Shown here piece by piece: positions 4,351 to 44,954 of a DNA stretch of 49,180 nucleotides. Both the position numbers and the translations under genes were made by a program. The notes under the pieces are model-generated. The model did no database searches. It had not been told where the DNA came from and saw nothing but the letters and a program-made list of their open reading frames with translations. Source of the DNA: an uncultured Alphaproteobacteria bacterium (GTDB taxonomy: Bacteria > Pseudomonadota > Alphaproteobacteria > Micavibrionales > CSBR16-224); assembly GCA_937941575.1 (NCBI GenBank), contig CALDHH010000075.1, forward strand, positions 1 to 49,180, read 5' to 3'. Position 1 is the first letter of the stretch. Each line of letters starts with the position of its first letter.

Positions 4351-4384
4351 GACTACTATTACCTTTCAAAAAGTAATAAAAAAA

Positions 4385-4408
4385 GGCCGTATCAATTAAG
4401 ATACGGCC
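4385..4408. terminator. Bidirectional Rho-independent terminator between dapE (+) and the pilin gene (-)
   Basis: GGCCGTATC-AATTAA-GATACGGCC is a perfect 9-bp stem. It is flanked by A7 (4378-4384) upstream and TTTAATTTTT downstream, so a U-tract follows the hairpin on either strand. Confidence 0.85.
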
Positions 4409-4434
4409 TTTAATTTTTAAACTATTTCTAGCTA

Positions 4435-5202
4435 CTATTGGATTTTAACTAATAAACCACAATCTTTTGTAACAAGAGTTTCGTCGTAAGTATCACCAGA
4501 AGCACCACCTGTTAGACAGCTAGCAGCAACTCCGTAACCTTGTACGAAACCAGTTGTAGATTTACCGTCATCCATTTTACGGTCAATTTGTGCCGCACGG
4601 ATTGGAGTTAAAACCTGAGAACCAGCAGTTTGGCTAATCGCAGCATTTACGTTATTCTGTAATGATAATACTAATCCACTTGGTAAAACCGCACCACCAG
4701 CAACAGTAGCACCATCACCATGACCTACGTGAAAACCACCACCAATTTTAGCAGATGGGTGTGATTCACCCCATGCTGGAACTGTTGGAGTTGTCATTAA
4801 TGCATCAGATACACCAGCGATTAAATCAGCTTTTAATAGGTGTAACCAAAACATTGATGTTTCAGCGCCTACTGAAGTAACAGCAACACCAGCCTGATCA
4901 GTACCAGCAGCACCGGCAGTACCAACGATTGAGTCACCCGCAGTAGCTGCAGCTGGATCACAGTTAGTTGCACAGTTTGGTAAACGTGTAGATGCGTTTA
5001 ACATGTCACCTGGAATTGCACTAAAAGAATCACGGAAAGTAGTTGTTGCTGCTTCGTAAGATTTTACTTGCGCAATTGTCGCTGTTACACGAGCGTTTTC
5101 CATTAATTCTTGACCTTTTAAAATACCACCGATCAATAGACCAATAATTGTCATCACGATTGCTAGTTCAACAAGCGTAAAACCTTTTTCTGTTTTTTTC
5201 AT
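4435..5202 (-). CDS. pilA: Type IV prepilin, unusually large (255 aa)
   Basis: Class III signal MKKTEKG|FTLVELAIVMTIIGLLIGG has Gly(-1), Phe(+1), Glu(+5) and a hydrophobic alpha1-N helix. There is a C-x3-C pair (NCATNC) and a C-terminal C-x18-C loop (SCLTGG...KDCGLL). SD AAGGGGA lies upstream. Confidence 0.9.
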   Translation of the reverse strand: MKKTEKGFTLVELAIVMTIIGLLIGGILKGQELMENARVTATIAQVKSYEAATTTFRDSFSAIPGDMLNASTRLPNCATNCDPAAATAGDSIVGTAGAAGTDQAGVAVTSVGAETSMFWLHLLKADLIAGVSDALMTTPTVPAWGESHPSAKIGGGFHVGHGDGATVAGGAVLPSGLVLSLQNNVNAAISQTAGSQVLTPIRAAQIDRKMDDGKSTTGFVQGYGVAASCLTGGASGDTYDETLVTKDCGLLVKIQ

Positions 5203-5433: not shown

Positions 5434-6507
5434 TTATTCTTTATTTCTATAAATAGATGGAGATATACCAGTTATATCTTTGAAAACACGGTTAAATGAA
5501 GCCAAAGAGTTAAATCCAACCTCAAATGCAACTATTTTTACAGGAATCTCTGGATTATTTAGCATTCTTTTTGCATCTTCTACCCGATATCCGTTCAATA
5601 AATTGGGTACACTTTGATTAAATGCAATATTTACGACCCTTGATAATATATTTTCTGAAATATCTAGCTCCCTTGCCAGATCTGAACGGCTAAAAGACGG
5701 CTCATGATATAGTTTATCCAAGGTCATTAAGTTATTTATCTTATTTATAAGCTCTTTCTCTTCATCGTTAAGATCTTTTACATCTGATTTCTTCTTTTGA
5801 TTCTCTAATCTTAAGGATTGAGGATAGATTCTAAATAGAACAGTGGTTGCCAAATATACAAATAGTAATGAAATGGATACTCTTAATAATTCTGTCTCTT
5901 TTATATTAAAGTAATTTGTTGAATACATTAAGTTAACAGCAATAGAATATATATTCGTTGTTATGATCGATATTATAAGCCAATATTTTTCCTTACCCAT
6001 TTTTGATTTTATTAGATTCTTAAAGAAGCTATCGTGGAAAATTAACAAAAGAAGTATAAGACTTCCCAATGTTGAGCCTAATACATAGAGCCATTGAAAG
6101 AAATCATCACAATAACTAACAGCTTCATCACACATATTTGTATTTAACTTTGCCCCATAGACAATTAAGACAACAATTATTGGCATTAGAATGGTTAGAA
6201 ATTCTTTTTTCTTCGGTATATCTCCGAATCTACCAATTTGTAATATAAATAAATAGCTAACTGGGATACTAAGCGACCATAAGAACCATGAAGATAATCT
6301 TATCTCATCGTAAAAATCATTTAAACGGAATGATACATGCGAGATAAATAATAGAGCGAGTATAAAAAAGTATAATATAGCCAAAAAAGCCTGTCGCCAT
6401 TCTTTTAGACGCGATAATATATATACAAGTATTAAAACGCATTGAAATAAACCTGTAATAGCCAGCCATTCCACCGATGAAAATGTTAAATTATATATGA
6501 ATTGCAT
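5434..6507 (-). CDS. Membrane-embedded AraC/XylS-family transcriptional regulator (about 7 TM helices plus C-terminal HTH)
   Basis: About seven hydrophobic segments in residues 1-230, then a KKKSDVKDLNDEEKE linker. The AraC-type double HTH follows (SRSDLARELDISENILSRVV ... FEVGFNSLASFNRVFKDITGISPSIYR). Confidence 0.85.
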   Translation of the reverse strand: MQFIYNLTFSSVEWLAITGLFQCVLILVYILSRLKEWRQAFLAILYFFILALLFISHVSFRLNDFYDEIRLSSWFLWSLSIPVSYLFILQIGRFGDIPKKKEFLTILMPIIVVLIVYGAKLNTNMCDEAVSYCDDFFQWLYVLGSTLGSLILLLLIFHDSFFKNLIKSKMGKEKYWLIISIITTNIYSIAVNLMYSTNYFNIKETELLRVSISLLFVYLATTVLFRIYPQSLRLENQKKKSDVKDLNDEEKELINKINNLMTLDKLYHEPSFSRSDLARELDISENILSRVVNIAFNQSVPNLLNGYRVEDAKRMLNNPEIPVKIVAFEVGFNSLASFNRVFKDITGISPSIYRNKE

Positions 6508-6600: not shown

Positions 6601-7335
6601 TTATTTATCTTCCCAGGTCTCACCAAATTTATCTTCGGCTGGAGAATCTTCTTGTAATCTTTCTTCAATAAATGATTGCATGAAGTTAACTTCGTTTGGG
6701 TGAAGATTCTGAGACTCGGTTGCCAATAAAGATTCAATAATTGTTTTTGCAGCTTCTTTTTCACCCAAAGCAGTTAAAACGAATATTGGCATCTGTCTTG
6801 CCCATATCGGCATATCTGGATTTTGTAAATCTGCTAGTTTATATGCAAGTTCTAATGCATATTCAAGATCATGCATTCTATATCTTGCAAGGAATACTGC
6901 ATGGGCAAGCCATCTCCATTTTTCACCTTCAGCATTATTTCCAGCTTCTGATAAATAATCAACAATTACATTAATGTCTTCTGGAACCTGAGTTGCACCA
7001 AAATAATAAGCAGCAGCCATTGAAACATGATCTGATTTTGCATCCATTTTATGAAGCAACCAAAACCAATGTTTTAACATTTGATAATCGTAATCTTTCA
7101 ACGGTGTAACACTGCCACCTGTATCACCAAGATTTTGTAATGTTAACGCACCCATTCTATAAGAAAATTGTGGGTCGCCCAATGTCATTGCCAAAGCACC
7201 TTGATAACTTGGTACTGGTGGAACGCCTGGCCATTTTGCTCTCATATTATTACTAAAAGCCCAATATAATCCATTTATAATTAAAAAGGAGAATAATAAT
7301 ATCTTAGATATGTTTAAAGATTTGTCGCTATTCAT
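6601..7335 (-). CDS. Hypothetical N-terminally anchored helical protein, translationally coupled to the ABC-2 permease
   Basis: One N-terminal TM (ILLFSFLIINGLYWAF), then a helical, repeat-like body. Its ATG overlaps the permease stop by 1 nt (TAATG at 7333-7337). I recognise no family. Confidence 0.6.
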   Translation of the reverse strand: MNSDKSLNISKILLFSFLIINGLYWAFSNNMRAKWPGVPPVPSYQGALAMTLGDPQFSYRMGALTLQNLGDTGGSVTPLKDYDYQMLKHWFWLLHKMDAKSDHVSMAAAYYFGATQVPEDINVIVDYLSEAGNNAEGEKWRWLAHAVFLARYRMHDLEYALELAYKLADLQNPDMPIWARQMPIFVLTALGEKEAAKTIIESLLATESQNLHPNEVNFMQSFIEERLQEDSPAEDKFGETWEDK

Positions 7336-8156
7336 TAAAACTGCCTACGTATTAAATCAAAATTTGCACATATAATTGTTAAGGTAATGAATACAAAACC
7401 CTGTAAGAATACAAATATTGGTAATCCCAAACTCGCAACTGCATCTATTATAAAATCACCTGTATTTTTAGAATACTCGACACTAGACATGCCATCAACT
7501 CCATATACTAACCAGCTTGTTTGACCCATAAGATCTAATCTTGGTATAATTATAGAGATAAATTCTAAGAAACTACCTAAAATTGACATTATAAAGCCAT
7601 CACCTGGTACATCTGCTATTCCAAGCAAAGTTCCAACCATTCTTGCCAAAGCATAGAAACCTAAACAAGCCAAAGCAGAACCTGCAGCACTTGATAAAAC
7701 CATTGAGAAGAACAATGCAAGACAAGAGATCAACATAAATTCAATTAAAATTGACCATCCCCAAACAAATAAACCATACATATCTGGCTTACCCAATACA
7801 AATACAGCTAGAATAACTGCAGCAGCTACTATTGCTGATAAAACAATAAACGCAAAAGCATGGCTTATTAAATATTTAGTCTTTGATATCGGTCTTGAAA
7901 GTAAAAATTCAACTTCTTTATTATCAAAAGCACGTCTTACATAGAATGATATAAATAACACTAGCCCTAAAACACCTAAGAATCTTAGACCACCTGAACC
8001 GAATACTACTGAGAAAGTTTGCTGTTCTGTCATAGATGCACTACCTAAAAACACAGCCATACTGCTACCCAACAAGATCATTAAGATCAATGTTATTACT
8101 AATTTATCTCTGAAAGCTGCTGTCAAAACATAGCTGACTAAAGGACCTGAAATCAT
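7335..8156 (-). CDS. ABC-2-type transporter permease-like membrane protein
   Basis: 273 aa with about six hydrophobic helices and no other domains, the size and topology typical of ABC-2 permeases. SD GGAG lies upstream. The assignment rests on architecture only. Confidence 0.6.
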   Translation of the reverse strand: MISGPLVSYVLTAAFRDKLVITLILMILLGSSMAVFLGSASMTEQQTFSVVFGSGGLRFLGVLGLVLFISFYVRRAFDNKEVEFLLSRPISKTKYLISHAFAFIVLSAIVAAAVILAVFVLGKPDMYGLFVWGWSILIEFMLISCLALFFSMVLSSAAGSALACLGFYALARMVGTLLGIADVPGDGFIMSILGSFLEFISIIIPRLDLMGQTSWLVYGVDGMSSVEYSKNTGDFIIDAVASLGLPIFVFLQGFVFITLTIICANFDLIRRQF

Positions 8157-8201: not shown

Positions 8202-10016
8202 TTAAAGCCTGAAAGGGCGTCTATCTGAACCAAAGGTATTATATAAGTCTTTATCTGTTTGACTAATATTACTACCCGGTAAGATCGTAGATTTTATGAA
8301 TATAACAAGTTCGTTCTTGGCAATTCTATCACCCTTACTTTTGAAAAAGTTACCCAATACTGGTAAATCACCAATCACTGGAACACCCACTGTGTCAACT
8401 TCTGTACGATCTGTCATCAATCCGCCCATTACAATTACTTGACCTGATTGCATTTTTACAATTGAATCCATTTCTTGTACTGCAAGTTCAGGAATTAAGT
8501 TCTGAACTCCAGATAAAGCCGCAGCAGTCGCTGCAGGTAGAGCCGCAATTGTAATCGCAACACCTGGATCCGCAATACTACCAACTACTCTTGTAATTGT
8601 TGGTCTTAAGAACATTGAGATTTCATCAGTATCTGTATTAACAGATGGGATAACACTTAACAATATACCTTCTGGAACAGATTGCACATCACTATCAACT
8701 GTAATTGTTGTAGCACCAGTATCTTCATCTTCTTCAACATCAACATCAACATCAAAGAAAACTCGGTTTTCAACCACATTCAATATTGCAGCTTGGTTAT
8801 TTAATACTGTTATTCTTGGACTAGATAATGCTTTTACTGTACCAAATCTACTAATTGCACTTACCGCTGCTTGGATATCATTACCCGGATTAATTGCCGC
8901 AGTAAATACGTTACCAGGAGTTAATGTTGGAGAAAATACAGGTTGAGCCAAATCAACATCAAAGTTTAATAGGCCTGTTAAATTCATGGCACCACCACCA
9001 GCAGAACCCCAATCAATACCAGCAGCGAATTCATCCAAAAGACTTACTTCTAAAATCTTTGCCTCTACTAATACTTGTGTAGTTACAGCTTTTCTAAGTT
9101 TCTTTAGATATTCTTTTAAAATCTTATGCTGTCTTGCACTTGTGAATACAGATATTATTCCAGAGCTACGACTTACAGAGAATTGTGAAGCACCTGCACC
9201 AGCAGTGGCAGCAACGGCTGCAACTGGAGCTGCGCCAGCTTGTACTGTTAAACTTGGCGGAGCATTTGGATTACTTGCATCGCCACCCGCAGCAACTCTT
9301 GGTTGAGCAATCGGGTTAGCCAATGTTGCAAGAGATGTATAATTATCTGTTGATGCAAGAATTGATTCTAATGTCGCTTCTAATTCTGTCCAGAAATCTG
9401 TTTCCATTGATGTTTCAACACCAGATGCTGATCCAACATCGGCACCTTCACCAGATACAACTGATACATCGATACTAATTGAACTTTCTGTAGTTCTACT
9501 AACGTTCACGTAGTCAATTCTGTAATTTTTCATGAAAGGTCTATCAATTTCAACTCTCAAAAGACCATTCTTATAAGTATAACGCAGACCTGACATACTA
9601 CATATTCTATGAATAATTTCGTCAAAAGGTCTGTTTCTTGCTGTAAACACGATTGAACCTGAAATTTGTGGATCCAGTTCTAAATCGATTTCTGCTTGGT
9701 CAGCAAGTTCGAATAAAATATCTCTTAATGGTACAGTTTGGTTAACTGATATTGATACCAATGGCATGCTCTCAGTTTCTCCACCTGGCTCAACAACATG
9801 AGTTGCCAATTCTGGAATACCACTATCACTATCCTGAGGTAGATCTCTTGGAGCCATTGATCTTCTGTAATCAGAAGCATCTAACGATCCACTTCTATCA
9901 TGTTTCAACTGGCTTTCAACCATTTCACATGCATTCAAGAAAAACACTGAAGATACAATCACTGCAACCTTAGTAATTTTATTAACAATTTTGAAATTAT
10001 TAAATATATTTGTCAT
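8202..10016 (-). CDS. pilQ: Secretin (PilQ/MshL/GspD family), probable lipoprotein
   Basis: C-terminal secretin signature VPVIGDLPVLGNFFKSKGDRIAKNELVIFIKSTIL. N-terminal signal ends in a lipobox-like FLNAC. An Ala/Pro-rich linker (AAGGDASNPNAPPSLTVQAGAAPVAAVAATAGAGAS) separates the N domains. Confidence 0.9.
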   Translation of the reverse strand: MTNIFNNFKIVNKITKVAVIVSSVFFLNACEMVESQLKHDRSGSLDASDYRRSMAPRDLPQDSDSGIPELATHVVEPGGETESMPLVSISVNQTVPLRDILFELADQAEIDLELDPQISGSIVFTARNRPFDEIIHRICSMSGLRYTYKNGLLRVEIDRPFMKNYRIDYVNVSRTTESSISIDVSVVSGEGADVGSASGVETSMETDFWTELEATLESILASTDNYTSLATLANPIAQPRVAAGGDASNPNAPPSLTVQAGAAPVAAVAATAGAGASQFSVSRSSGIISVFTSARQHKILKEYLKKLRKAVTTQVLVEAKILEVSLLDEFAAGIDWGSAGGGAMNLTGLLNFDVDLAQPVFSPTLTPGNVFTAAINPGNDIQAAVSAISRFGTVKALSSPRITVLNNQAAILNVVENRVFFDVDVDVEEDEDTGATTITVDSDVQSVPEGILLSVIPSVNTDTDEISMFLRPTITRVVGSIADPGVAITIAALPAATAAALSGVQNLIPELAVQEMDSIVKMQSGQVIVMGGLMTDRTEVDTVGVPVIGDLPVLGNFFKSKGDRIAKNELVIFIKSTILPGSNISQTDKDLYNTFGSDRRPFRL

Positions 10017-10132: not shown

Positions 10133-11263
10133 CTATAAAGAAAGCCTCGATGTATCTATCTGTGGAAGCCCAGATGATGAGTCTTTGCCCCCTAATTCGT
10201 ATTGTTGTATTTTCATCTTCATATCTGATGAAATATCCGCTTCTACAATAGCTGTTTCACTAGTTATTGTATTTTCTGTGTATAATTTGAACAAAGATTG
10301 ATCAAAAGTTACCATTCCAAGAGCATTATTCTTTGCCATTACATCTGATATACCTTTGGTCTTTCCTTTTAATATTAATTCTTTTACTAATGCTTCGTTT
10401 AGCAACACCTCTAATGCCACAACTACTCCGCCACCTTTTTTAGCAACAAGCCTTTGAGATACGATTGATCTTAAATTCATTGATAAAGCAATTCTTATTT
10501 GCATTTGTCTTTCTTCTGGGAAGAAATTAATTATACGCTCAATTGCTTGCGATGCATTATTTGTATGGATTGTACTTAAGCATAAATGCCCAGTTTCTGC
10601 AGCACTTATTGCTTGCTCCATTACTTCTTCATCTCTTACTTCACCGACCAAGATAACATCTGGCTTTTGTCTTAATGCATTTTTTAATGCAACATTATAT
10701 GAAACGGTATCAATACCAACTTCACGTTGAGTAATAATACAGCCTTTATGAGCATGATAATATTCAACCGGATCTTCAATTGTTATGATATGACCAGAAC
10801 CCTTTGTATTACGGTAATCCATCATTGATGCCAAAGATGTTGATTTACCAGATGAAGTCACACCAGAAATTAAAATAAGGCCACGTTTTTCCATAGCCAG
10901 CATTTTGAAGACTTCAGGCAGGTTTAATTCTTCAAAACTAGGTATATCAGAAGTAATACGTCTGATAACCATTCCTGGATGTTGTCTTTGCTTTAAAACA
11001 TTTATACGAAATCTACCTTGTTGTCCCATATCTAATGCTAGATTCAATTCCATATTTGCATCAAATTCACGTCTTTGACGGCTGGTTAAAACTTCACTTA
11101 ACATCCCCTCAAGATCTTCAACTTCTAGTTTTTCATCTGTAATTGTGCTAAGTTTATTATCTTTACGAATTGTTGGTGGAACCCCTACTGTTAAGTATAA
11201 ATCAGTTGAGGACTGACTAACCATCTCATCCAGATATGTATATATTGCAATCCCACTACTCAA
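10133..11263 (-). CDS. pilU: PilU-like PilT-family hexameric ATPase
   Basis: Walker A GVTSSGKST, Asp box ITIEDPVEY, Walker B DVILVGEVRD and His box GHLCLSTIHT. N-terminus resembles PilU (DLYLTVGVPPTIR) and it lacks the AIRNLIRE motif. TTG start overlaps the pilT stop (TTGA). Confidence 0.85.
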   Translation of the reverse strand: MSSGIAIYTYLDEMVSQSSTDLYLTVGVPPTIRKDNKLSTITDEKLEVEDLEGMLSEVLTSRQRREFDANMELNLALDMGQQGRFRINVLKQRQHPGMVIRRITSDIPSFEELNLPEVFKMLAMEKRGLILISGVTSSGKSTSLASMMDYRNTKGSGHIITIEDPVEYYHAHKGCIITQREVGIDTVSYNVALKNALRQKPDVILVGEVRDEEVMEQAISAAETGHLCLSTIHTNNASQAIERIINFFPEERQMQIRIALSMNLRSIVSQRLVAKKGGGVVVALEVLLNEALVKELILKGKTKGISDVMAKNNALGMVTFDQSLFKLYTENTITSETAIVEADISSDMKMKIQQYELGGKDSSSGLPQIDTSRLSL

Positions 11264-12465
11264 AACGAATATCCTCCATCCATTTCTGAATCAACTTGAC
11301 TAGCCGGTATCTCTTGGACTGGGCTAGGATTATTTGGATTATGCTGAGGTGTAGCTTGCTTCTGTGCTGTCTCTGGCTTTCTCTCATCGCTATTTTCTTC
11401 ACCATGGCCATCATCAGATGCGATATCACCCATTTCATCAGCACCATCTTTCAATGCGTCTTGAGCAACTTCTTCTGAAATAAGATCAGCATCAAGTAAA
11501 TCATTTAAAGAATCTTCCATGGTCTGCATCCCGTATCTTGCACCGGTCTGAATCATTGAATAAACTTGGGCTAACTGATTTTCTCTAATCAAGTTACGAA
11601 CAGCATTTGTTCCAACCATGATCTCATGCGCGGCTACACGGCCACCAGTTTTTCTTTTTAATAGTTTCTGAGCAATTACACCCTGAACAGAACTTGATAA
11701 CATGGCCCGAACCATACCTTTTTCTGCAGCAGGGAAAACGTCAATAATACGGTCAATAGTCTTTGCAGCAGAACTTGAGTGAAGAGTTCCAAAAACCAAG
11801 TGACCTGTCTCAGCAGCAGTTAGAGCAAGTGATATTGTTTCATAATCACGCATCTCACCAACTAGAATAACATCTGGATCTTCACGCAAGGCACTTTTCA
11901 AAGCTTTAGAGAATGATTTGGTATCCGTACCGACTTCTCTGTGATTAACCAAGCTTTTATTTGATTGGTGATAAAATTCAACCGGATCTTCAATTGTTAG
12001 AATATGTTCATTTCTTGTATCATTAATATAATCGATCATTGATGCCAATGTAGTTGATTTACCACTACCCGTTGGACCAGTTACCAATACGATACCCTGT
12101 TTCACTTCCGATAAATGGCGCATAATCGGTGGAAGACCTAAATCTGCCATTTTGGGGATTTTAGTTGGAATCACACGAAATACTGCCGCGGCCCCCACTC
12201 TATTTGTAAAAGCATTCACACGAAAACGAGCATTCTCTCCAAATGAAATCGCAAAATCTATTTCTTGCTCTTTCTCATATTCGGCTCTTTGCTCATCGGT
12301 CATGATTGAATATAACATCGATTTAATACTATCGCTTGTTAACTCTTCTGACTTAATTTTACGAAGTTCACCATCTACTCTTATTATCGCGGGGTTTGAA
12401 CCACTCAAATGTAAATCTGATGCATCGTTTTTCATTGTAAACGAAAGTAATTGTGTAATATCCAA
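11260..12465 (-). CDS. pilT: PilT twitching-motility (retraction-type) ATPase with a ~60-aa acidic C-terminal extension
   Basis: Starts MDITQLLSF...ASDLHLS like canonical PilT. Walker A GPTGSGKST, LTIEDPVEF, DVILVGEMRD, GHLVFGTLHS and the PilT-specific AVRNLIRE are present. TTG start is preceded by a strong SD AGGGGGA. Residues ~341-401 are an extra low-complexity acidic/Pro tail. Confidence 0.92.
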   Translation of the reverse strand: MDITQLLSFTMKNDASDLHLSGSNPAIIRVDGELRKIKSEELTSDSIKSMLYSIMTDEQRAEYEKEQEIDFAISFGENARFRVNAFTNRVGAAAVFRVIPTKIPKMADLGLPPIMRHLSEVKQGIVLVTGPTGSGKSTTLASMIDYINDTRNEHILTIEDPVEFYHQSNKSLVNHREVGTDTKSFSKALKSALREDPDVILVGEMRDYETISLALTAAETGHLVFGTLHSSSAAKTIDRIIDVFPAAEKGMVRAMLSSSVQGVIAQKLLKRKTGGRVAAHEIMVGTNAVRNLIRENQLAQVYSMIQTGARYGMQTMEDSLNDLLDADLISEEVAQDALKDGADEMGDIASDDGHGEENSDERKPETAQKQATPQHNPNNPSPVQEIPASQVDSEMDGGYSF

Positions 12466-12603: not shown

Positions 12604-13431
12604 CTACATTCCCATTTTGTAAAAAACTCCACCATCGAAGATTAAGCAAATTAAAAATGCCAATATCAAAGATGGCCCGAATGGAAATTCTTCTCTACCT
12701 GTAATTTTTTTCCAGAATAAAGATATAAAGATACCACTTAGACCAGAGATTAATAAGAACATCGGTGAAGATAAATTACCGATCCATAAACCAGCTACAA
12801 AGAAAAACTTAACATCACCAAGTCCCATTGGCTCTCGTTTCATTATCTTCATAAATATTGCTCTTAATAAAAATGATCCTATCCCGAAAGTTAGAGCACT
12901 TATTAGCGCGTATTTACCTGTATCTTTTAAATAATAAACAAATTCACCGCTATAACATGCTTCAATCAAGAGCATGATTAAACCCAATATAAATAAAGAT
13001 AAATTAAGTCTATTTGGTATAATTTGAAATTCAAAATCAATTGCAATTATTGCAACCATTATGAAAGACATTAAGAATAATGGGATTAATCTATAATCTA
13101 ATGGAAAGATAAGAAAGAATATAAGGCATAATAACGCAGTAGATAGTTCAATCACTGGGTATCTGATGCTAATTTTTTTCTTACAATATCTACATTTTCC
13201 GCCTGAGAATAACCAAGAGAACACTGGAAATAAATCCAATATACCCAGAACATGGTTACAACTTGGGCAATGCGAACGGCTTATTTTTTCTTTATCTAGC
13301 TTCTTCTTTGGAGATATCATAGATATTCCCCTTGGCATGCGATAGCTAAGCGCTGTCGCGAAGCTACCTAAACACATACCAATTACGAATACCGTTATTA
13401 CTTCTAACGCAAAGATAATTTCTGAATACAT
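12604..13431 (-). CDS. pilD: Prepilin peptidase / N-methyltransferase (A24 family)
   Basis: Cytoplasmic CPSC...CRYC tetracysteine motif, multiple TM helices, and catalytic Asp motifs IAIDFEFQIIPN and MGLGDVKFF. Confidence 0.92.
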   Translation of the reverse strand: MYSEIIFALEVITVFVIGMCLGSFATALSYRMPRGISMISPKKKLDKEKISRSHCPSCNHVLGILDLFPVFSWLFSGGKCRYCKKKISIRYPVIELSTALLCLIFFLIFPLDYRLIPLFLMSFIMVAIIAIDFEFQIIPNRLNLSLFILGLIMLLIEACYSGEFVYYLKDTGKYALISALTFGIGSFLLRAIFMKIMKREPMGLGDVKFFFVAGLWIGNLSSPMFLLISGLSGIFISLFWKKITGREEFPFGPSLILAFLICLIFDGGVFYKMGM

Positions 13432-13455: not shown

Positions 13456-15015
13456 CTATTGAATAGCAATAAGGCGTTTTTTAATCTGTTTCACTGGAAT
13501 TACACCTTTGTAATCGCCTGCGTAATACAGATTTAAAGCTTCTCTATAAAGATGAGCAGCTGAACTCTTTTTGCCCATACGATCATAGATAACAGCTCTA
13601 TTAAATATATATCCAACATTCTTATCATCTAAGCTAGATGCAATATTTAGATATTTTATCGCTTTACCATACTCATTTAAATCACCATATGCGCTCCCCA
13701 ATTGACCAGCAACTCCGGCATTACCTGGGTAAGAGCCTCTTAATTGTTGTAATTTATCCGCTGCAAATCTTGGAGATTCTTTTCTTAGAACACCCAACAT
13801 ATTTGTTAGAGCATCAAGATTTTTTGGATCTCTTTTTAAAGTTTTCTCATATGTTTTTAAAGCTGAAGCTGTATCACCACTTCTTTGATAAGCAATAGCA
13901 AGACCCATAAGAACTCTTGAATCTTTTGGTTTATCTGATCTTAAATCTTGGAACATTTCCAATGCAGTTGCGTATCTTCCTTCTGATAAAGCACGTCTTG
14001 CCGCAGATAGTCTTGCATCAACGCTATTTGACCCTCTACTTCTTTTTAATACAAAATATTTAGGATTTAAGTCACGAATTACAGCCGGCTTTTCTAATTC
14101 ATTTAAAGTACTGCTTCTATTTGGACCTTGACCAAGTGGTGCGATCGGGGCATCGCCATCAATAACACCTAATGTTTGTGCTTGTTCTAAAGATTCTGCT
14201 GGCGGTGCCATTTCTTTTAAAGTATCAGTATTCGCAATTAATGCTTTCTCTGCATCAGTTGGCTCTGTAATATTTTCAATTGCTTCCATTGGTATATCTT
14301 GCACAACATCAATATTCTCAACTGGTATTCCACCCATCATTTGATTAGGGTCCATAGCCATTTGCTCTAAACCAGCATCCATTGACATCATTTGATCTGG
14401 CACAGGAATTCCCTCTGGCATATTCTTTATATCTGTTATTTCTCCATCAGCAAATTCCGATAGCTCTGACATTGCATCAGAGGTCTTTTCTTCTGCACCA
14501 GACAATATTTGGCCTGTTGTATCTGCTAATTTTTGAGCACTACCTTCTGTAATTTCAACGATATCTCCAGTTGTCTCGTTAATTGATGAAATAGTACCAT
14601 CAAGCTCGGTAGTAAATTCACCACTATCCAAAGCAGAGACAGTTTCTTCTATCACACCATCTTCTGCAGGAATCGGTGGGAAATCAACATCTGATATTTC
14701 ATTTAAATCACCTAGACCTGATAAATCTGAATCTACTGCAACATTATCCATGCCAGTATTCATTGGATCAATTTGATTATCCATTCCTGTGTTCATTGGA
14801 TCCATATTACCTTGGGCAACTATTCCATTATTTGGAGCAGGTTTATCACCAGATGTAAAAAAGTAATATGCGCCACCAAGTGCCAGAGCCAAAGATACAA
14901 AGCCACCTAATACTAAGGCTTTCTTCTTTCCTTTTCCGCCTGATCTTTCTCCATCAAACTCAATTTCGTCACCAAGGTTAAAATCAACTTCTTCTGTCAT
15001 GTTATCGTCACTCAT
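13456..15015 (-). CDS. TM-anchored acidic-linker plus TPR protein (MshN/PilF-like pilus assembly factor)
   Basis: KGKKK followed by a TM (ALVLGGFVSLALALGGAYYFF), then a ~270-aa highly acidic region with a DPMNTGMDN tandem repeat. The C-terminal ~190 aa have TPR-like periodicity (GRYATALEMFQDL, GDTASALKTYEKTLKRDPKN, YGKAIKYLNIASSLD). Confidence 0.7.
   Translation of the reverse strand: MSDDNMTEEVDFNLGDEIEFDGERSGGKGKKKALVLGGFVSLALALGGAYYFFTSGDKPAPNNGIVAQGNMDPMNTGMDNQIDPMNTGMDNVAVDSDLSGLGDLNEISDVDFPPIPAEDGVIEETVSALDSGEFTTELDGTISSINETTGDIVEITEGSAQKLADTTGQILSGAEEKTSDAMSELSEFADGEITDIKNMPEGIPVPDQMMSMDAGLEQMAMDPNQMMGGIPVENIDVVQDIPMEAIENITEPTDAEKALIANTDTLKEMAPPAESLEQAQTLGVIDGDAPIAPLGQGPNRSSTLNELEKPAVIRDLNPKYFVLKRSRGSNSVDARLSAARRALSEGRYATALEMFQDLRSDKPKDSRVLMGLAIAYQRSGDTASALKTYEKTLKRDPKNLDALTNMLGVLRKESPRFAADKLQQLRGSYPGNAGVAGQLGSAYGDLNEYGKAIKYLNIASSLDDKNVGYIFNRAVIYDRMGKKSSAAHLYREALNLYYAGDYKGVIPVKQIKKRLIAIQ
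14743..14802 (-). repeat. Tandem 33-nt coding repeat (2 copies) inside the TPR-protein gene
   Basis: attatccatgccagtattcattggatc (14743-14769) vs attatccattcctgtgttcattggatc (14776-14802). They encode DPMNTGMDN twice. Confidence 0.8.
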
Positions 15016-15048: not shown

Positions 15049-15786
15049 TTATGCTGCTTTTTGACTATCTATAGTCTCCAAGAACGCTCTCTCAAGATAT
15101 TCCTGCCCTGATTGCTTCTTTAACTCTGCTGGAGTTCCAACAAATAAAAGATCGCCGCCATGAATTACACTTACTCTGTCACAAATTTCATCCATATCCG
15201 CTAAAATATGTGAGCTCATAAACACTGTGATACCTTCTTTTTTACATTTCAATATCTCATCTTTAACATTTGCTCTAGCTCTTGGATCTAGACCACTCAT
15301 CGGCTCATCTAAAATCAGCAAAGGACATTTTGTTAATAGAGTTCCTAATAATCCAACTTTTTGGCGCATACCTTTTGAGTAAGTATTTACTCTGCGTCTT
15401 AAAGCTTTCTCATCTAAAGATACTCTTTCTGCAGCTTCAATAATCTCTTTTTCATCAATCTCTCTATTATATAACTTTAACGAGAATTTAATGAACTCTA
15501 TACCAGATAAAAAATTTGGTGGCTCAAAACGCTCTGGTAAGTAAGCAAGTTTCTCTTTGCTAGATTTATCCAAATCATTGCCACCGAAAAACTTAATTGA
15601 TCCAGAGCTTGAAGCCATTAAGCCAAGCAATACTTTAATAAATGTTGTTTTACCAACACCGTTAAGCCCCATAAGCCCAAAAATCTCTCCTGCACCTACT
15701 TCAAAATTAATGTCTCTTATTACGTCATCACCGCCGTAATTCGCAGCAATATCCTTTACTAATAAAACACTATCTTTTTTAACCAT
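15049..15786 (-). CDS. ABC transporter ATP-binding protein (ABC-2/DrrA-like single NBD)
   Basis: Walker A GLNGVGKTT, signature-like YSKGMRQKVGL, Walker B LLILDEPMSGLD and H-loop SSHIL. 245 aa with no fused TM domain. Confidence 0.9.
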   Translation of the reverse strand: MVKKDSVLLVKDIAANYGGDDVIRDINFEVGAGEIFGLMGLNGVGKTTFIKVLLGLMASSSGSIKFFGGNDLDKSSKEKLAYLPERFEPPNFLSGIEFIKFSLKLYNREIDEKEIIEAAERVSLDEKALRRRVNTYSKGMRQKVGLLGTLLTKCPLLILDEPMSGLDPRARANVKDEILKCKKEGITVFMSSHILADMDEICDRVSVIHGGDLLFVGTPAELKKQSGQEYLERAFLETIDSQKAA

Positions 15787-15815: not shown

Positions 15816-16478
15816 TTAACCTGGCAGTAAAATACCACTTTGAATATCATATACTTGATGTGGTCTCATATTGATTGTGATAATTTTATTAAACACAGAA
15901 TCAAACCATTCCAAATATACACTATCTCTTTTTACATGTATTCCAACGATCTCTGGCAATAAATAACCTGGGGTTAGTCTTTTACCATTAATCCATACAA
16001 TCCAATTATTTGAAGAATTATAAAGCAATCCATCAACATCAATTATACGCTTAGGAGCTTCTTCACCTTCTCCACCAAGTGTCGCATCTTTACCAGATAA
16101 GGCTCTTTCTAATGTCAGAACCTCTAAAGGAGTTAAGAATAGAGATGAAGAGAAGCCTGGTGTATTATTCGTATAAATTCTTGCTTTAACCTCTGCCAAT
16201 AGTTTTGCAGCTGTTTCTTTTCTTTTTGCTTCTTTTTCTTCCGGTGTCTCTTCTGTTACAGATTCAGCAACCTCTACTGGTGCAGACTGCCCCGGAGGTA
16301 CAGATGGATCAATCATATCATCTGGGTTGGAAGCCTGCATATCCATTTGTTGCATCTGTTGTTCCATTTGCAATTGCTCAGCAGTTTGCGCATTAACCGA
16401 CTGATTTACAAATATGAAACATATTGTAAGCAGAGCTGCAAATCCTGATAATCTTTTAATTTTATTTAAAAATAACAT
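15816..16478 (-). CDS. Secreted PilP/MshK-like pilus alignment protein
   Basis: Signal peptide (ALLTICFIFVNQSVNA|QT), Q/M/E-rich linker and a C-terminal small beta domain (WIVWINGKRLTPGYLLPEIVGIHVKRDSVYLEW). The domain is reminiscent of PilP/MshK/GspC-HR, and the gene sits after the pilO-like gene. Confidence 0.55.
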   Translation of the reverse strand: MLFLNKIKRLSGFAALLTICFIFVNQSVNAQTAEQLQMEQQMQQMDMQASNPDDMIDPSVPPGQSAPVEVAESVTEETPEEKEAKRKETAAKLLAEVKARIYTNNTPGFSSSLFLTPLEVLTLERALSGKDATLGGEGEEAPKRIIDVDGLLYNSSNNWIVWINGKRLTPGYLLPEIVGIHVKRDSVYLEWFDSVFNKIITINMRPHQVYDIQSGILLPG

Positions 16479-16497: not shown

Positions 16498-17151
16498 CTA
16501 TTTAACAAAGCCAGATTGACCGTTTTTATCACCTGGTGTCGCCTGCAAACTTTGCCAATCGAAAACAAGTTTTCCCTCCATTATTGGCTCAGCTTCACCA
16601 TCTACAATCTTATTAAGAAGGTCATTATCAACTTTACCTACTTTTTCAAGCTTGAACATATGTATTCTTGTATGGCCAGGAAAAGATTTATCTATCCATT
16701 CAATAAATTGATAAATATCCGTGTCTAAAAATGCATTTAATCTGTTTAGCTCAATTCTACTATTGATTAACTTATATCCTGCAATTTTGGCATCTTTATT
16801 TTCAATTTCTTGTAGCGCACTAATTTTATATTCAAAACCTGATACTCCTGATGCACGTCTTATTTCTTCTAATACGTCACCCACCATAAATCTATCTTGA
16901 TTAATAAAGAAACCATCTTGTTCCATATTTTCAAAATCACCCAAGCTGGCTCTTAATGCTTTCAGTTCTTCCTTAATATTCAAAATTTTACTTCTAAATC
17001 CAGATATATCCGTTTTCAATGTGCTTAATTCTTTTTCTGTATCTTTTCTAAGTGGTTCAACCCATAAGAAGAAGGCACCTGCTAAGGATACAGCAATGAA
17101 TATTAATACCGATATAATAGCTAATCTTCGTACACCAATTAATTTTATCAT
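16498..17151 (-). CDS. PilO/GspM/MshJ-like bitopic inner-membrane protein
   Basis: Short N-terminus, one TM (LAIISVLIFIAVSLAGAFFLW), a coiled-coil (EKELSTLKTDISGFRSKILNIKEELKALR) and a ~100-aa periplasmic domain. ATGA overlap with the upstream gene. Confidence 0.65.
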   Translation of the reverse strand: MIKLIGVRRLAIISVLIFIAVSLAGAFFLWVEPLRKDTEKELSTLKTDISGFRSKILNIKEELKALRASLGDFENMEQDGFFINQDRFMVGDVLEEIRRASGVSGFEYKISALQEIENKDAKIAGYKLINSRIELNRLNAFLDTDIYQFIEWIDKSFPGHTRIHMFKLEKVGKVDNDLLNKIVDGEAEPIMEGKLVFDWQSLQATPGDKNGQSGFVK

Positions 17152-18824
17152 AACGGCACTCCTATGACTTTAAATCTTGCCATTTCTTCATCTTTAGCAC
17201 TAGATCCTCCACCGACAGAAGATCCTCCACCATCCGACGCAGTACCAATTTTAGCCGAGAAAACACCCGTTCTAGATACACCACCGAATTGCTTCTCCAT
17301 TGTTATTTCATGATCTGGCAAAGCACCTCTTAATCTTTTTAAGAAAGATTCAGTTTCAGCAACTTTTTCTTCCAAAGGCATATCATTCGGTAAAGAATAA
17401 GAGAAGAATAGTTCAAAATAACCGTTATCAGCAAGCTTCTTTGAACCCTTACCGGTCATTTTAGCCATAATTTTCTTTAACACATCTGATTGTTTTTTAG
17501 CGCCACCATTTTTATCCGGAAGATCAATTTTTGCATTTGGAACATGTCTATAACTCATATCTGCTAAAAACACTTCTGATCCTAAATTATCTCTAACCAC
17601 TTTTAAAACAGGCTCTGGACTTATTGAGTTCTCTACCAATAAACCCTTCACTGCAAGCGACCCCCTAACCACATCTGGTTTTACAGGGACAGCAGCAAAT
17701 ATAGCTGCCTCTTGATCATATTCTCTTTTTAAAAGATTATATTGTGTCTTATTTTGGGCGATTTCTGAGTGAACTTCTCTATATTCAGCAAAGCTACTAT
17801 AAAGCATGTAAGACAGACCGATTGCAGCAAGAAGCAACAATATACTTCCGAATTTAACAGCCATCCTTGGCAATACAATTTTTGAGATCTCTTCAATTTT
17901 TAAATTTAAAGAAGGACCGCCTTTTTTACCAATCCAACCTGCATGAACTGCATCTGAATATTTTGGTTTAACACCTTTGCCGTATTTAAAGCCAATTAAC
18001 TTTCCGGCTTCATGAACCGTCATTGGATAAAAATTACTTACAGGCAAACCAACAGATTGCATTGCTTCTTTTTCAGCCGCACCGGATACAACAAAAACAT
18101 CCAATCCTTCAGATGGGTTATAACCAAATCTTGCAACATAACTTAGAGTAGCTTTAAATTCTTTGGCAACCTCTTCTGCCCATGCAGTACCGCTTGATAC
18201 ATTTTCTGCCATTGGCGTCAGCCTTGTCAAAGCAAGGTCACCATCTTTAATTACAACTTGCCTTAAACCACCTGTTTCATGTTGACCTATAAATACGATC
18301 CATCTAGACGCCATCTCATTAGTGCTGTTTAAATTCTTCTTTGCTAATTCTTGTAACATGCTTGCAGATTCTACTGGTAATAGACAAACACCCGATACAT
18401 GGACACCAGCTTCGAAAATGGCATTAATAATCTTGTTAATGTTTTCAGTCTCTGGCAAACCAGCCAATAAATAAGAATCCGGTGAATCTACCTTCATCAG
18501 TTTATCACGTTTCTTCTTACCTTTAAGCTCTAAAGCTCCGCGGATCTTCGTATTTGAAAAAGCAGAATCAATCTTTCTCTTAAGAATTTTAGGTTTATCC
18601 AATGAACTTACTTTTGGTAATGTTTCCTTACGATAATGCTGTTCAACAACATCAAAAACAAGCCTTACAGATTTACCGCTATTTTTTTCGGTAAATACAT
18701 TTATCAGCTGCTCTTCAAAATCCGGAACAGACCAAGGAATTGAACATTCATGTTCAACATTCTTACCTGATGATAAGTATAAAACTACACCTTCATCTCC
18801 AATTAAAAGTACTCTTTTAGCCAC
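17148..18824 (-). CDS. PilM-PilN fusion (MshI/GspL-like) inner-membrane assembly protein
   Basis: A ~320-aa cytoplasmic actin-like/GspL-like domain (VLLIGDEGVVLY..., VSGVCLLPVESASML, LRQVVIKDGDLALTRL). A single TM (FGSILLLLAAIGLSYMLYSSF) and a ~210-aa periplasmic part with a Gly/Ser tail follow. GTG start. Confidence 0.7.
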   Translation of the reverse strand: MAKRVLLIGDEGVVLYLSSGKNVEHECSIPWSVPDFEEQLINVFTEKNSGKSVRLVFDVVEQHYRKETLPKVSSLDKPKILKRKIDSAFSNTKIRGALELKGKKKRDKLMKVDSPDSYLLAGLPETENINKIINAIFEAGVHVSGVCLLPVESASMLQELAKKNLNSTNEMASRWIVFIGQHETGGLRQVVIKDGDLALTRLTPMAENVSSGTAWAEEVAKEFKATLSYVARFGYNPSEGLDVFVVSGAAEKEAMQSVGLPVSNFYPMTVHEAGKLIGFKYGKGVKPKYSDAVHAGWIGKKGGPSLNLKIEEISKIVLPRMAVKFGSILLLLAAIGLSYMLYSSFAEYREVHSEIAQNKTQYNLLKREYDQEAAIFAAVPVKPDVVRGSLAVKGLLVENSISPEPVLKVVRDNLGSEVFLADMSYRHVPNAKIDLPDKNGGAKKQSDVLKKIMAKMTGKGSKKLADNGYFELFFSYSLPNDMPLEEKVAETESFLKRLRGALPDHEITMEKQFGGVSRTGVFSAKIGTASDGGGSSVGGGSSAKDEEMARFKVIGVPL

Positions 18825-18859: not shown

Positions 18860-20068
18860 TTATATCCCCATATTCGAAAAGCTATTGTAAATTGGACCAA
18901 ATACAGCAGCCGCAATCCATAACATAATACCACCAAGAATAACCGTCATCATTGGCTCAATCATCTGAATCATTGAATCGACCGCTTCGTTCACATCTTT
19001 ATCATAAAATTCTGCAACTTGTTCTAAAACTCCAGTCAAGTTACCAGATTCCTCACCAATCTTCACCATTCTTACCACCAATGATGGAAACTCACCTGAG
19101 TTATTTAAGGCTGTTGATATTGGGTTACCTTCTTTTACCTGTTCTCTTACACGCTCTAACGCCTCTTGCATCACAAGATTACCGGCAGTTTTCTGAGCAG
19201 ATTCTAGACATCTCAAGATCTCCAAACCACTACTAAACAATACACCAAATGTTTGGGCAAATCTTGATAATGAAATCTTTCTTATCAAAATCCCCATTAC
19301 CGGCATATTCAGAGCAAGCTTATCAGTTTGATATCTAAAACCTGTTGAAACTGCGCGTCCAATTTTTATACTGGCGATAAACACCACTATTCCGATACCC
19401 ACATATAGACCATTAGCAACGAAGAAGTCCGAAGTTGCGATCAATGAAGTGGTTATCATACCTAATTCCTGATCCATACTTTCTAAGAATCCTAAAACCT
19501 GCGGTACAACATATGCCATCATCAAAGTTACAACACCGAACATAACCACACCCAGTATTTTTGGATATTTTGTGGCCTGTTTAACTTTTGAATCCATCGC
19601 ATCAGTCCATTTAAGGTGATGGATAAGCTGAGTAAATGAATTGGATAAGTTACCGGTTTCTTCACCAGCACCAATTAATGAGATAAATATATTAGTAAAT
19701 ACAGATGGGTGATTTGACATCGCCTCAGATAATGAATTACCCTCTGATACATCTCTGTATACTTCGGTCATGATATCTCTAAGCTTGGCTGATTCAGTTG
19801 TGTCACGGATATCAGACAAACCATCCATTAATGGTACACCAGCTTTCTGTAGCTGTTCTAGATGTACGAATAATTGCACCATGTCACGAGTTTTAATTTT
19901 TGCTTTAAATGCCGCTTTTTTCTTTTTGGTTTCCATGGATTTTGCTTCGATAAGCTCCATGCCACGTTCAGATAATTGTTGGGCTAAATCTTTTTCGTTC
20001 GCCGCAGATATAGAGCCTCTAACGGCCCTACCTTGGTTATCAATCGCGCGATAATTATATTTATTCAT
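18860..20068 (-). CDS. pilC: Type IV pilus / T2SS platform protein (PilC/GspF family)
   Basis: 402 aa with a duplicated GspF-type cytoplasmic domain (LSEAMSNHPSVFTNIFISLIGAGEETGNL and ISTALNNSGEFPSLVVRMVKIGEESGNL) and three TM segments. Confidence 0.92.
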   Translation of the reverse strand: MNKYNYRAIDNQGRAVRGSISAANEKDLAQQLSERGMELIEAKSMETKKKKAAFKAKIKTRDMVQLFVHLEQLQKAGVPLMDGLSDIRDTTESAKLRDIMTEVYRDVSEGNSLSEAMSNHPSVFTNIFISLIGAGEETGNLSNSFTQLIHHLKWTDAMDSKVKQATKYPKILGVVMFGVVTLMMAYVVPQVLGFLESMDQELGMITTSLIATSDFFVANGLYVGIGIVVFIASIKIGRAVSTGFRYQTDKLALNMPVMGILIRKISLSRFAQTFGVLFSSGLEILRCLESAQKTAGNLVMQEALERVREQVKEGNPISTALNNSGEFPSLVVRMVKIGEESGNLTGVLEQVAEFYDKDVNEAVDSMIQMIEPMMTVILGGIMLWIAAAVFGPIYNSFSNMGI

Positions 20069-43362: not shown

Positions 43363-44139
43363 TTATAATTGCATCTCAATTGGTCCAGTAGCACGACCAT
43401 TAATAAATTGATCCACATATTCATTCCCAGAATTCTCAATTTTATCGACACTATCATGCCAGATAATTTTTCCTTCAAATATCATTGCCACATTATCAGC
43501 AATCTTTTTAGCACTCGCCATATCATGGGTAATTGTTAAAGTTGTTGCTCCTAAATCTTTAGTACATTTCACAATTAAATCATTAATCACATCCGCCATA
43601 ATTGGGTCAAGCCCAGTTGTTGGCTCATCAAAGAATATAATCTCTGGATCTTCTGCGATTGCACGTGCCAATGATACGCGTTTTTGCATTCCGCCTGATA
43701 ATTCGGCTGGATATCTGGTGGCAACATCGCTTTTTAAGCCAACGGCTCTTAATTTTTCAATTGCCAAATCATAAGCATCTGATTTCGACATTTTACCTTT
43801 TTGCATTAAAGCAAAAGCGATGTTTTCCCAAACAAGTAAACTATCGAATAAAGCGCCACCTTGGAATAACATTCCAAATTTGCGCATTAGGTTATCTTGC
43901 TCTTTATTCGATATATTATTTACCTCTTGTCCATCGACCTTAATTACACCTTTATCTGGTTTAATTAGGCCTAGAACTGTTTTTAACATTACTGATTTAC
44001 CGCTACCTGATCCACCAATAACTACCAATGATTTTCCTTTATTCACGGATAAATCAATACCGTTTAAAACATGGTTATTACCAAAGCTTTTGTAAACTCC
44101 GCTTAAAGAAATCTTTGTTTGTTTATTATCATTAGTCAT
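43363..44139 (-). CDS. mlaF: MlaF-like ABC transporter ATP-binding protein
   Basis: Walker A GGSGSGKS, LSGGMQKRVSLARA and IIFFDEPTTGLDP. Start overlaps the mlaE stop by 1 nt (TAATG). Confidence 0.85.
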   Translation of the reverse strand: MTNDNKQTKISLSGVYKSFGNNHVLNGIDLSVNKGKSLVVIGGSGSGKSVMLKTVLGLIKPDKGVIKVDGQEVNNISNKEQDNLMRKFGMLFQGGALFDSLLVWENIAFALMQKGKMSKSDAYDLAIEKLRAVGLKSDVATRYPAELSGGMQKRVSLARAIAEDPEIIFFDEPTTGLDPIMADVINDLIVKCTKDLGATTLTITHDMASAKKIADNVAMIFEGKIIWHDSVDKIENSGNEYVDQFINGRATGPIEMQL

Positions 44140-44954
44140 TATGAGAAAAATACCTGCGTTAGAACATAGTTAAATATTAAGATTAAAATTGATGAAGAAA
44201 CAACCGCATTCGTAGTTGCAGCACCAACACCTTGAGCGCCTCGTCCAGAATTAAAGCCGCTATAACAACCCATTAATGTAACGATAAATCCAAAAACTGA
44301 GGCCTTAATCAAACCAGACATTACATCATCATATTCCAAGAATTCCCAAGTTTTATGAATGTAATTCTCTGGACGAAAATCAAGTGAATAAACGCTTACT
44401 AAATAACCACCAAATACACCAATAATATCACCAACGAATACCAAAGCAGGTAACATTAGAACCCCTGCGATAATTCTAGGGGCAATTAAATATTTAAATG
44501 GATTGGTTGATAATGTTACCAAAGCATCAATCTGTTCAGTCACTCGCATGGTTGCAATCTCGGCTGCAATTGAGGCACCGATGCGACCTGCTACCATTAA
44601 ACCTGCTAAAACAGGAGCTAGCTCTCTGGTGATAGATAAAACAACAACCGTTGCAACTGCACTCTCAGCATTAAATCTTGAAAATCCAGTATAGCTTTGT
44701 AATGCTAAAACCATCCCTGTAAATAAAGCGGTCAAACCAACAACGGGTAGTGAATAATAACCAATATTGATAATTTGACGCATGATTAGGGCTGGATAAA
44801 ATGGTGGAGTGAAGCTGTGATAAATTGCTTTACCTGCAAAAATTGCAATGCGACCAATTCCACCAAGGAAGGCTGTAATTGTTGTACCGATTGCTTCACA
44901 GACATCAAGAACCCAAGTAATTGGATTGAATTTTGTTTTTTCTTTAATGCTCAT
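44139..44954 (-). CDS. mlaE: MlaE-like ABC transporter permease
   Basis: 271 aa, multi-TM, with the conserved MlaE-type block ESAVATVVVLSITRELAPVLAGLMVAGRIGASIAAEIATMRVTEQIDAL. Confidence 0.85.
   Translation of the reverse strand: MSIKEKTKFNPITWVLDVCEAIGTTITAFLGGIGRIAIFAGKAIYHSFTPPFYPALIMRQIINIGYYSLPVVGLTALFTGMVLALQSYTGFSRFNAESAVATVVVLSITRELAPVLAGLMVAGRIGASIAAEIATMRVTEQIDALVTLSTNPFKYLIAPRIIAGVLMLPALVFVGDIIGVFGGYLVSVYSLDFRPENYIHKTWEFLEYDDVMSGLIKASVFGFIVTLMGCYSGFNSGRGAQGVGAATTNAVVSSSILILIFNYVLTQVFFS

Follow-up and report, generated by a model that had tools for sequence, protein, structure and literature searches.

A probable PilGHI-like ABC-2 module inherited with type IV pilus genes in Micavibrio-like Alphaproteobacteria

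In Myxococcus xanthus, the genes pilG, pilH and pilI sit in the pil cluster, and their deletion abolishes S motility (PMC5544727). The three proteins have been described as essential for the translocation of pilin across the inner membrane (PMC3724824), and a comparative study found PilGHI across the former Deltaproteobacteria (PMC6060248). The need for PilG, PilH and PilI in the production of Myxococcus pili is credited to Wu et al. (1998), as cited in PMC3724824 and PMC6060248. The mechanism of PilGHI is left unexplained in PMC3724824, PMC6060248 and PMC5544727. The Micavibrio genome paper describes dispersed pil genes and mentions no ABC transporter. In the part of the literature that we covered, we found no published description of the module presented here in Alphaproteobacteria.

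Two further systems bear comparison. The MSHA locus of Vibrio (mshI-J-K-L-M-N) contains a fused PilM-N-like gene, two small single-pass genes, an MshL-type secretin and a TPR protein. To our knowledge, MshM is not an ABC ATPase, and we know of no ABC-2 permease in that locus. ABC ATPases of the class considered here dock on the coupling helix of an ABC-2 permease. In NosDFY of Pseudomonas stutzeri (PDB 7o0y, 7o17 and 7qba), such an ABC-2 core works with a periplasmic protein partner.

The window, which is the whole 49,180-nt stretch of DNA that we analysed, contains a type IV pilus cluster with an ABC ATPase gene inside it. All of the genes from 20068 down to 4435 lie on the minus strand, in the order PilC, PilM-N-like, two single-pass proteins, ATPase, TPR protein, PilD, PilT, PilU-like, secretin, a 273-aa protein, a 244-aa protein, an AraC-type regulator and a pilin-like protein. 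The PilC platform protein (18860–20068; PF00482 T2SSF, 1.3e-57) is followed by a 558-aa PilM-N-like fusion (17148–18824), a marker of this pilus type that gave no Pfam or NCBIfam match. The PilO-like protein (16498–17151) and the 220-aa PilP-like protein (15816–16478) have no family match and are named from their position and one predicted transmembrane segment each. Directly downstream of the ATPase gene is a 519-aa TPR protein (13456–15015; TPR families at about 1e-13), and then come the PilD prepilin peptidase (12604–13431; PF06750, 2.4e-27; PF01478, 1e-14) and the retraction ATPases PilT (11260–12465) and PilU-like (10133–11263), which match TIGR01420 with 484 and 424 bits, both over the cut-off. 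The secretin (8202–10016; PF00263, 2.3e-30) has MshL as its best NCBIfam match, with 209.6 bits, under the cut-off of that model. Next are the 273-aa protein (7335–8156) and the 244-aa protein (6601–7335), which we refer to as the permease and the helper. A membrane-embedded AraC-type regulator (5434–6507), which may belong to the same unit as the helper gene, lies directly after it, and the pilin-like gene (4435–5202) is the last of the cluster.

A two-way hairpin terminator with a 12-bp stem, 6 G-C pairs and T-runs on both strands was found at 4382–4411. The promoter and terminator scan gave nothing informative within the cluster, and no intergenic site comparable to this terminator was seen among the genes from 20068 down to 4435. 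PilB, which heads the operon in the related loci L016, L025, L197, L199 and L201, is missing from that spot in the window. Elsewhere in the host genome, PilT/PilB-superfamily matches at C142:30796–31842 and C157:13637–14437 (in open frames of 443 and 754 aa) are candidates for the extension ATPase. We also observed an ORF of a size similar to that of the AraC-type regulator gene (369 aa, L016:18879–19988) after the helper gene in a relative from another family. A second ABC pair in the window (43363–44954), formed by a 258-aa ATPase adjoining a 271-aa five-helix protein, is unrelated to the pilus module.

The ATPase gene at 15049–15786 had been described in an earlier note on this DNA as encoding a stand-alone 245-aa nucleotide-binding domain. 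We found the open frame, on the minus strand, with a PF00005 ABC_tran match of 1.1e-24 and the full motif set: Walker A GLNGVGKTT (residues 40–48), the signature YSKGMRQK (136–143), Walker B LLILDEP (156–162) with the catalytic E161, the D-loop SGLD (164–167) and the H-loop SSHIL (191–195). The flanking gaps are as short as had been stated: 29 nt separate the ATPase gene from the PilP-like ORF, and 33 nt separate it from the TPR ORF. Orthologues with 48–68% identity are uninterrupted in 25 related genomes, and the ORF is therefore not a chance one. The 26th match (G004:C1:355917–356609) contains a single in-frame TAA, as does one helper orthologue (G002:C40:9563–10231); these stops could reflect decay or assembly errors. 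The host had been called alphaproteobacterium-like, which agrees with the nearest homologues of the ATPase, the permease and the helper, all from Alphaproteobacteria MAGs and Micavibrio sp. One ‘Bdellovibrionales’ label among the homologues arises because NCBI taxonomy files Micavibrio under Bdellovibrionota, and hit labels such as ‘Bdellovibrionales bacterium’ are to be read with this placement in mind.

Among solved structures, the closest relatives of the ATPase were ABCA ATPase domains, Thermotoga TM0544 and NosF (1e-37). Its best NCBIfam matches were to generic ABC-2-type ATPases (drrA, RbbA, lantibiotic protection and GldA), all far under the cut-off. Such sub-threshold matches, and the sheer number of ABC ATPases (18 in the host genome, which comprises 1.96 Mb in 196 contigs at about 34.5% G+C), are what might be expected of an unrelated housekeeping or resistance ABC ATPase that ended up in the pilus operon fortuitously, its true partner being elsewhere in the genome. 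However, the nearest paralogues of the pilus ATPase in the host are only 28–33% identical to it, and most stand-alone ABC ATPases there have adjacent permeases of their own (six of the eight others that we examined adjoin a polytopic membrane protein). In the host genome, we found no polytopic protein adjacent to the pilus ATPase and no ATPase adjacent to the 273-aa permease.

To follow these genes across genomes, we used the ATPase, the permease, the helper and the PilM-N-like protein as queries against 41 related genomes. Matches were obtained in 26, 27, 27 and 27 genomes, respectively, and these were the same genomes save for three exceptions. In G006, a fragmented assembly of 300 contigs, the ATPase was missing; in G002, likewise a fragmented assembly, the contig begins at the ATPase and PilM-N was missing; and in G014, the trio was absent and the PilM-N matches were weak (E 1.9e-15), indicating a different PilM-N. 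Besides G006, the ATPase was absent from 14 genomes, namely 13 that lacked all four proteins and G014. Fisher's test for co-occurrence in the 41 relatives gave p = 4e-10, a value that is too favourable, since it makes no correction for kinship among the genomes. The distribution does not set one clade apart from another: families f3 and f5, and even the single genus g7 (G010 versus G016), each include genomes with the entire gene set and genomes with none of it. A helper profile run against 401 sampled genomes of the class matched 17 of them, spread over no fewer than a dozen additional families. Outside the order, an ATPase orthologue (37–50% identity) was found once in each of 14 helper-positive genomes out of 14, and in none of the eight helper-negative control genomes.

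The earlier note had singled out the permease at 7335–8156 as the only plausible membrane partner of the ATPase in the window and had proposed following the two across genomes. We found that their patterns of presence and absence agree in the 41 relatives everywhere but in G006, and that both are orphans in their own genome. No cognate permease was found elsewhere, and co-occurrence with the pilus genes was strict.

We rebuilt the synteny in other genomes from match coordinates and ORF lists. A relative in family f8 has the same order as the window, except that its operon starts with PilB. The family f3 operon consists of PilB-PilC-PilMN-PilO-PilP-ATPase and ends there, and the permease and helper genes lie upstream. 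Three genomes of other families have secretin-permease-helper, then two to four genes, then PilB-PilC-PilMN-PilO-PilP-ATPase. Two adjacencies are thus conserved. The ATPase gene comes immediately after the PilP-like gene (in L016, L025, L197 and L201; in L199, a gap of about 440 nt that contains no ORF of at least 150 aa precedes the ATPase), and the order secretin-permease-helper recurs in L016, L197, L199 and L201, with one-base overlaps throughout these three genes in one genome. The helper start overlaps the permease stop by 1 nt in the window as well. The gene after the ATPase is variable and encodes a TPR protein, a GGDEF protein or an RTX protein, or else the operon ends. In G202, the following gene (L199:14432–15994) encodes a PAS-GGDEF diguanylate cyclase (GGDEF, 1.4e-42) with a one-base overlap, and a c-di-GMP link to the pilus operon is possible in that genome. 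The position of the ATPase gene after the PilP-like gene is kept across at least six families of the class, and the gene is absent wherever the pilus set is absent. On these synteny and co-occurrence data, we rejected the insertion of a generic ABC ATPase by chance, which we regard as hardly credible.

The split arrangement itself, which the earlier note had taken to be undescribed in an alphaproteobacterium-like genome, is not peculiar to this one and turned out to be the rule in every alphaproteobacterial locus examined. Nor did contiguity, which had been taken as a trait of the PilGHI genes, hold throughout. In Myxococcota, the PilG, PilH and PilI genes are often contiguous and their order varies; in distant Myxococcota relatives (for example, G075, G076, G081 and G074), the PilG and PilI genes are directly adjacent, leaving no room for PilH between them.

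The permease is a 273-aa protein with six helices, encoded on the minus strand, and we describe it as PilI-like and of the ABC-2 (type V) class on the basis of a PilI profile match, its fold model and its co-occurrence with the ATPase. No Pfam or NCBIfam model matched it above threshold, the Pfam matches to ABC-2 families being weak (ABC2_membrane_4, E 0.008), and a profile search against PDB sequences matched no chain. The AlphaFold2 model has a pLDDT of 77. A Foldseek search with this model placed the NosY chains of NosDFY on top (TM-scores of 0.60–0.67), followed by ABCG and PmtCD transmembrane domains. Between helices 2 and 3 is the stretch KEVEFLLSRPISR, the most strongly conserved motif of the permease. 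Because the known type V architecture puts the ATPase contact there, this stretch may be the ATPase docking site in this fold. We infer the physical pairing of the ATPase with the permease; the ATPase gene is never adjacent to that of its presumed permease.

This separation of the genes also bears on a different arrangement, in which the ATPase would act directly on the alignment complex (PilM-N, PilO-like and PilP-like) or on PilC, and the permease and helper, lacking an ATPase, would make up a unit of their own associated with the secretin. The ATPase gene invariably lies beside the PilP-like gene and never beside the permease gene, and the permease and helper genes are always beside the secretin gene, as such an arrangement would predict. 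Yet the motif that is best conserved in the permease is the very stretch expected to serve as the coupling helix for ATPase docking, the ATPase and the permease have identical presence in every genome but the 300-contig G006, and the three genes are often contiguous in Myxococcota. We therefore consider two separate units very unlikely.

The helper, encoded at 6601–7335 on the minus strand, is a PilG-like accessory protein of 244 aa with an N-terminal membrane anchor and an all-helical TPR-like domain. It gave no Pfam or NCBIfam match above threshold, and a profile search against PDB sequences was also empty. Its AlphaFold2 model (pLDDT of 89.8) shows one N-terminal membrane helix and 12 further helices, and Foldseek returned weak, generic TPR matches (best E 0.04), PilF among them. 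The positive-inside rule favours an N-in orientation in 32 of the 34 helper family members, placing the N-terminus in the cytoplasm, so the helical domain probably faces the periplasm. The helper family is compact, with 573 clusters at 50% identity worldwide.

To compare the three proteins with their Myxococcota counterparts, we retrieved Myxococcota genomes with an MglA query and used PilD and the ATPase to find the pil locus of Cystobacter fuscus. This locus encodes PilD, PilA (PF14245), PilG (an anchor and a weak TPR match), PilH, PilI (PF12679, 8e-13), PilR and PilS. PilG and PilI sequences were gathered from about 40 Myxococcota genomes, made into profiles and compared with the profiles of the window families. 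The permease profile matched the PilI profile end to end over 239 columns (hhalign probability of 97%, E 1.3e-10), in a comparison that included PilI as its sole NosY-like family. The permease and PilI have R16/R18 in common, as well as P-x-S-R following helix 2, an invariant Pro at about residue 205 and RRxF at the C-terminus. The helper profile (35 sequences) matched the Myxococcota PilG profile (21 sequences) over 193 columns (probability of 95.5%, E 1.3e-8), and the sole invariant residue of Myxococcota PilG (D97, in ‘DLDP’) aligned with D98, which is invariant among the helper proteins. The link to PilG is more specific evidence than the link to PilI. Both relationships are visible by profiles only: identity of the permease and the helper to PilI and PilG is about 15–16%, and single-sequence hhalign against C. 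fuscus gave probabilities of 11% for PilI and 5% for PilG.

The ATPase is 36% identical to C. fuscus PilH (E 7e-46), which is its third-best match in that genome. In an Anaeromyxobacteraceae genome, its best match is an ABC ATPase adjoining pilD, which we take to be PilH. In an ATPase tree that included paralogues from both lineages, the alphaproteobacterial clade (100/100) emerged from a three-way fork, the other two branches of which were a PilH clade, including the best Geobacter and Geomonas matches, and a pair of C. fuscus paralogues. An AU test did not reject a joint clade of the ATPase with PilH (p = 0.44, delta lnL 0.93). These sequence comparisons are compatible with orthology of the ATPase to PilH. 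The sequence check suggested in the earlier note, against PilH and NBDs of the NosF and GldA type, thus yielded the PilH identity, the NosF match and a GldA match under the cut-off, and did not single out PilH. The PilG/H/I precedent cited there is strengthened to homology for the permease and the 244-aa protein, and for the ATPase it is compatible with the identity to PilH and the fork in the tree.

Two features of the Myxococcota proteins were observed alongside these comparisons. In G074, G076, G077, G080 and G081, the open frame at PilI is 570–780 aa long, which could represent a fused permease-ATPase or merely a long frame in high-GC DNA. Myxococcota PilG contains a conserved C-terminal P-x-DP-x-GG ... 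DGRA-S module (at residues of about 238–298 in C. fuscus PilG and columns of about 285–320 in the Myxococcota PilG alignment), which is missing from the window helper and gave no match to Pfam. We take this module to resemble the heads of GspG-type pseudopilins.

Taken as a whole, these observations are probably best explained by a PilH-like ATPase that belongs to a pilus-dedicated ABC-2 (type V) module. In this module, two ATPase and two permease subunits would form the usual ABC-2 core. Binding and hydrolysis of ATP in the cytoplasm would move the permease, and this motion would be passed to the periplasmic TPR arm formed by the helper. The arm might then act on a protein step of pilus assembly, either the handling of pilins at the inner membrane or the assembly of the secretin or a periplasmic ring. 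The module would work as NosFY does on NosD and not as a pump for small solutes. That it transmits force rather than exporting a substrate is a tentative proposal from our analysis, to which we give somewhat less than an even chance.

The main alternative is that the trio is a true exporter, which would carry a substrate needed for pilus function across the inner membrane, with the TPR protein serving as a scaffold only. The substrate would be small or linked to a lipid, such as a glycan, a peptide or a lipid itself. Most type V ABC relatives of the ATPase are exporters (of the ABCA, DrrA and lantibiotic-protection types), the ABCG and PmtCD exporters also match the fold of the permease, and the M. 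xanthus literature links the system to the passage of pilin through the membrane (PMC3724824). By contrast, the best fold match of the permease is NosY, which has a periplasmic protein partner; the third component is strictly co-inherited, translationally coupled and built on a protein-binding type of domain; and Pfam and NCBIfam annotation revealed no biosynthetic or glycosylation genes in the cluster. On balance, we consider an exporter unlikely, if still worth keeping in mind.

A bolder reading of the pilus-dedicated module, which we offer as speculation and consider rather improbable, is that the type IV pilus has in it a second machine powered by ATP, one that transports nothing and whose split gene layout reflects where its parts sit in the apparatus. 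Production and assembly of the ATPase would go together with the alignment complex (PilM-N, PilO-like and PilP-like), and production of the permease and the TPR arm with the secretin. Through ATP turnover, the platform at the inner membrane would be linked to the channel in the outer membrane. The module might do so by gating the secretin or periplasmic ring, by helping to assemble them, or by passing pilins on to the fibre as it grows.

These results suggest that, in Micavibrio-like and other Alphaproteobacteria, a trimmed, three-part PilGHI-like module is passed on as one block together with the pilus genes. Because the module is co-inherited and its genes are embedded in the operons of the alignment complex and the secretin, a chance association is very unlikely. 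The alphaproteobacterial module offers a second, smaller system for asking what PilGHI does, and its NosFY-like fold and periplasmic TPR arm turn this into a concrete question, that is, whether force is transmitted or a substrate is pumped. Type IV pili are thought to matter for the attachment of Micavibrio-like predators to their prey (PMC3189940), and the module may for this reason be part of the predation apparatus.

Compared with the systems described above, the module shares with NosDFY an ABC-2 core that would work with a periplasmic protein partner, a NosY-like permease fold and a NosF-like ATPase. It differs in that its partner is all-helical and TPR-like with a membrane anchor of its own, whereas NosD is a beta-helix protein, and in that its neighbours are pilus genes, with no nos genes in the cluster. 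Given this type of partner and gene context, we rejected membership in NosDFY; at most, the module works in a NosDFY-like manner. The window cluster resembles the MSHA locus in its fused PilM-N-like gene, two single-pass genes, TPR protein and secretin with MshL as the best NCBIfam match; unlike that locus, it has an MshL match that remains under the cut-off and a PilM-N-like protein without a family match.

The closest likeness is to PilGHI. Both systems combine an ABC-2 ATPase, a NosY-like permease of about 260 aa (PF12679 in C. fuscus PilI) and a TPR-like protein with a membrane anchor, and in both, all three genes lie in a type IV pilus cluster. The window genes occupy two conserved sites, whereas pilA-pilG-pilH-pilI of C. 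fuscus lie beside pilD. PilH is 318–329 aa long and carries a C-terminal extension of about 80 aa (with a weak DrrA1-3_C match) that the 245-aa window ATPase lacks, and the window helper lacks the last 60 or so residues of PilG. The surrounding pilus cluster also differs from that of PilGHI, with a PilM-N fusion and an MshL-like secretin in the window. PilGHI belongs to Myxococcota and the window module to Alphaproteobacteria; a requirement for pili is known only for M. xanthus, and the pilus role of the window module is a predicted one. Together, these comparisons indicate that the ATPase, the permease and the helper probably constitute a pilus accessory of the PilGHI type, found here in a new lineage, in which the proteins are trimmed and the genes are split between two sites.
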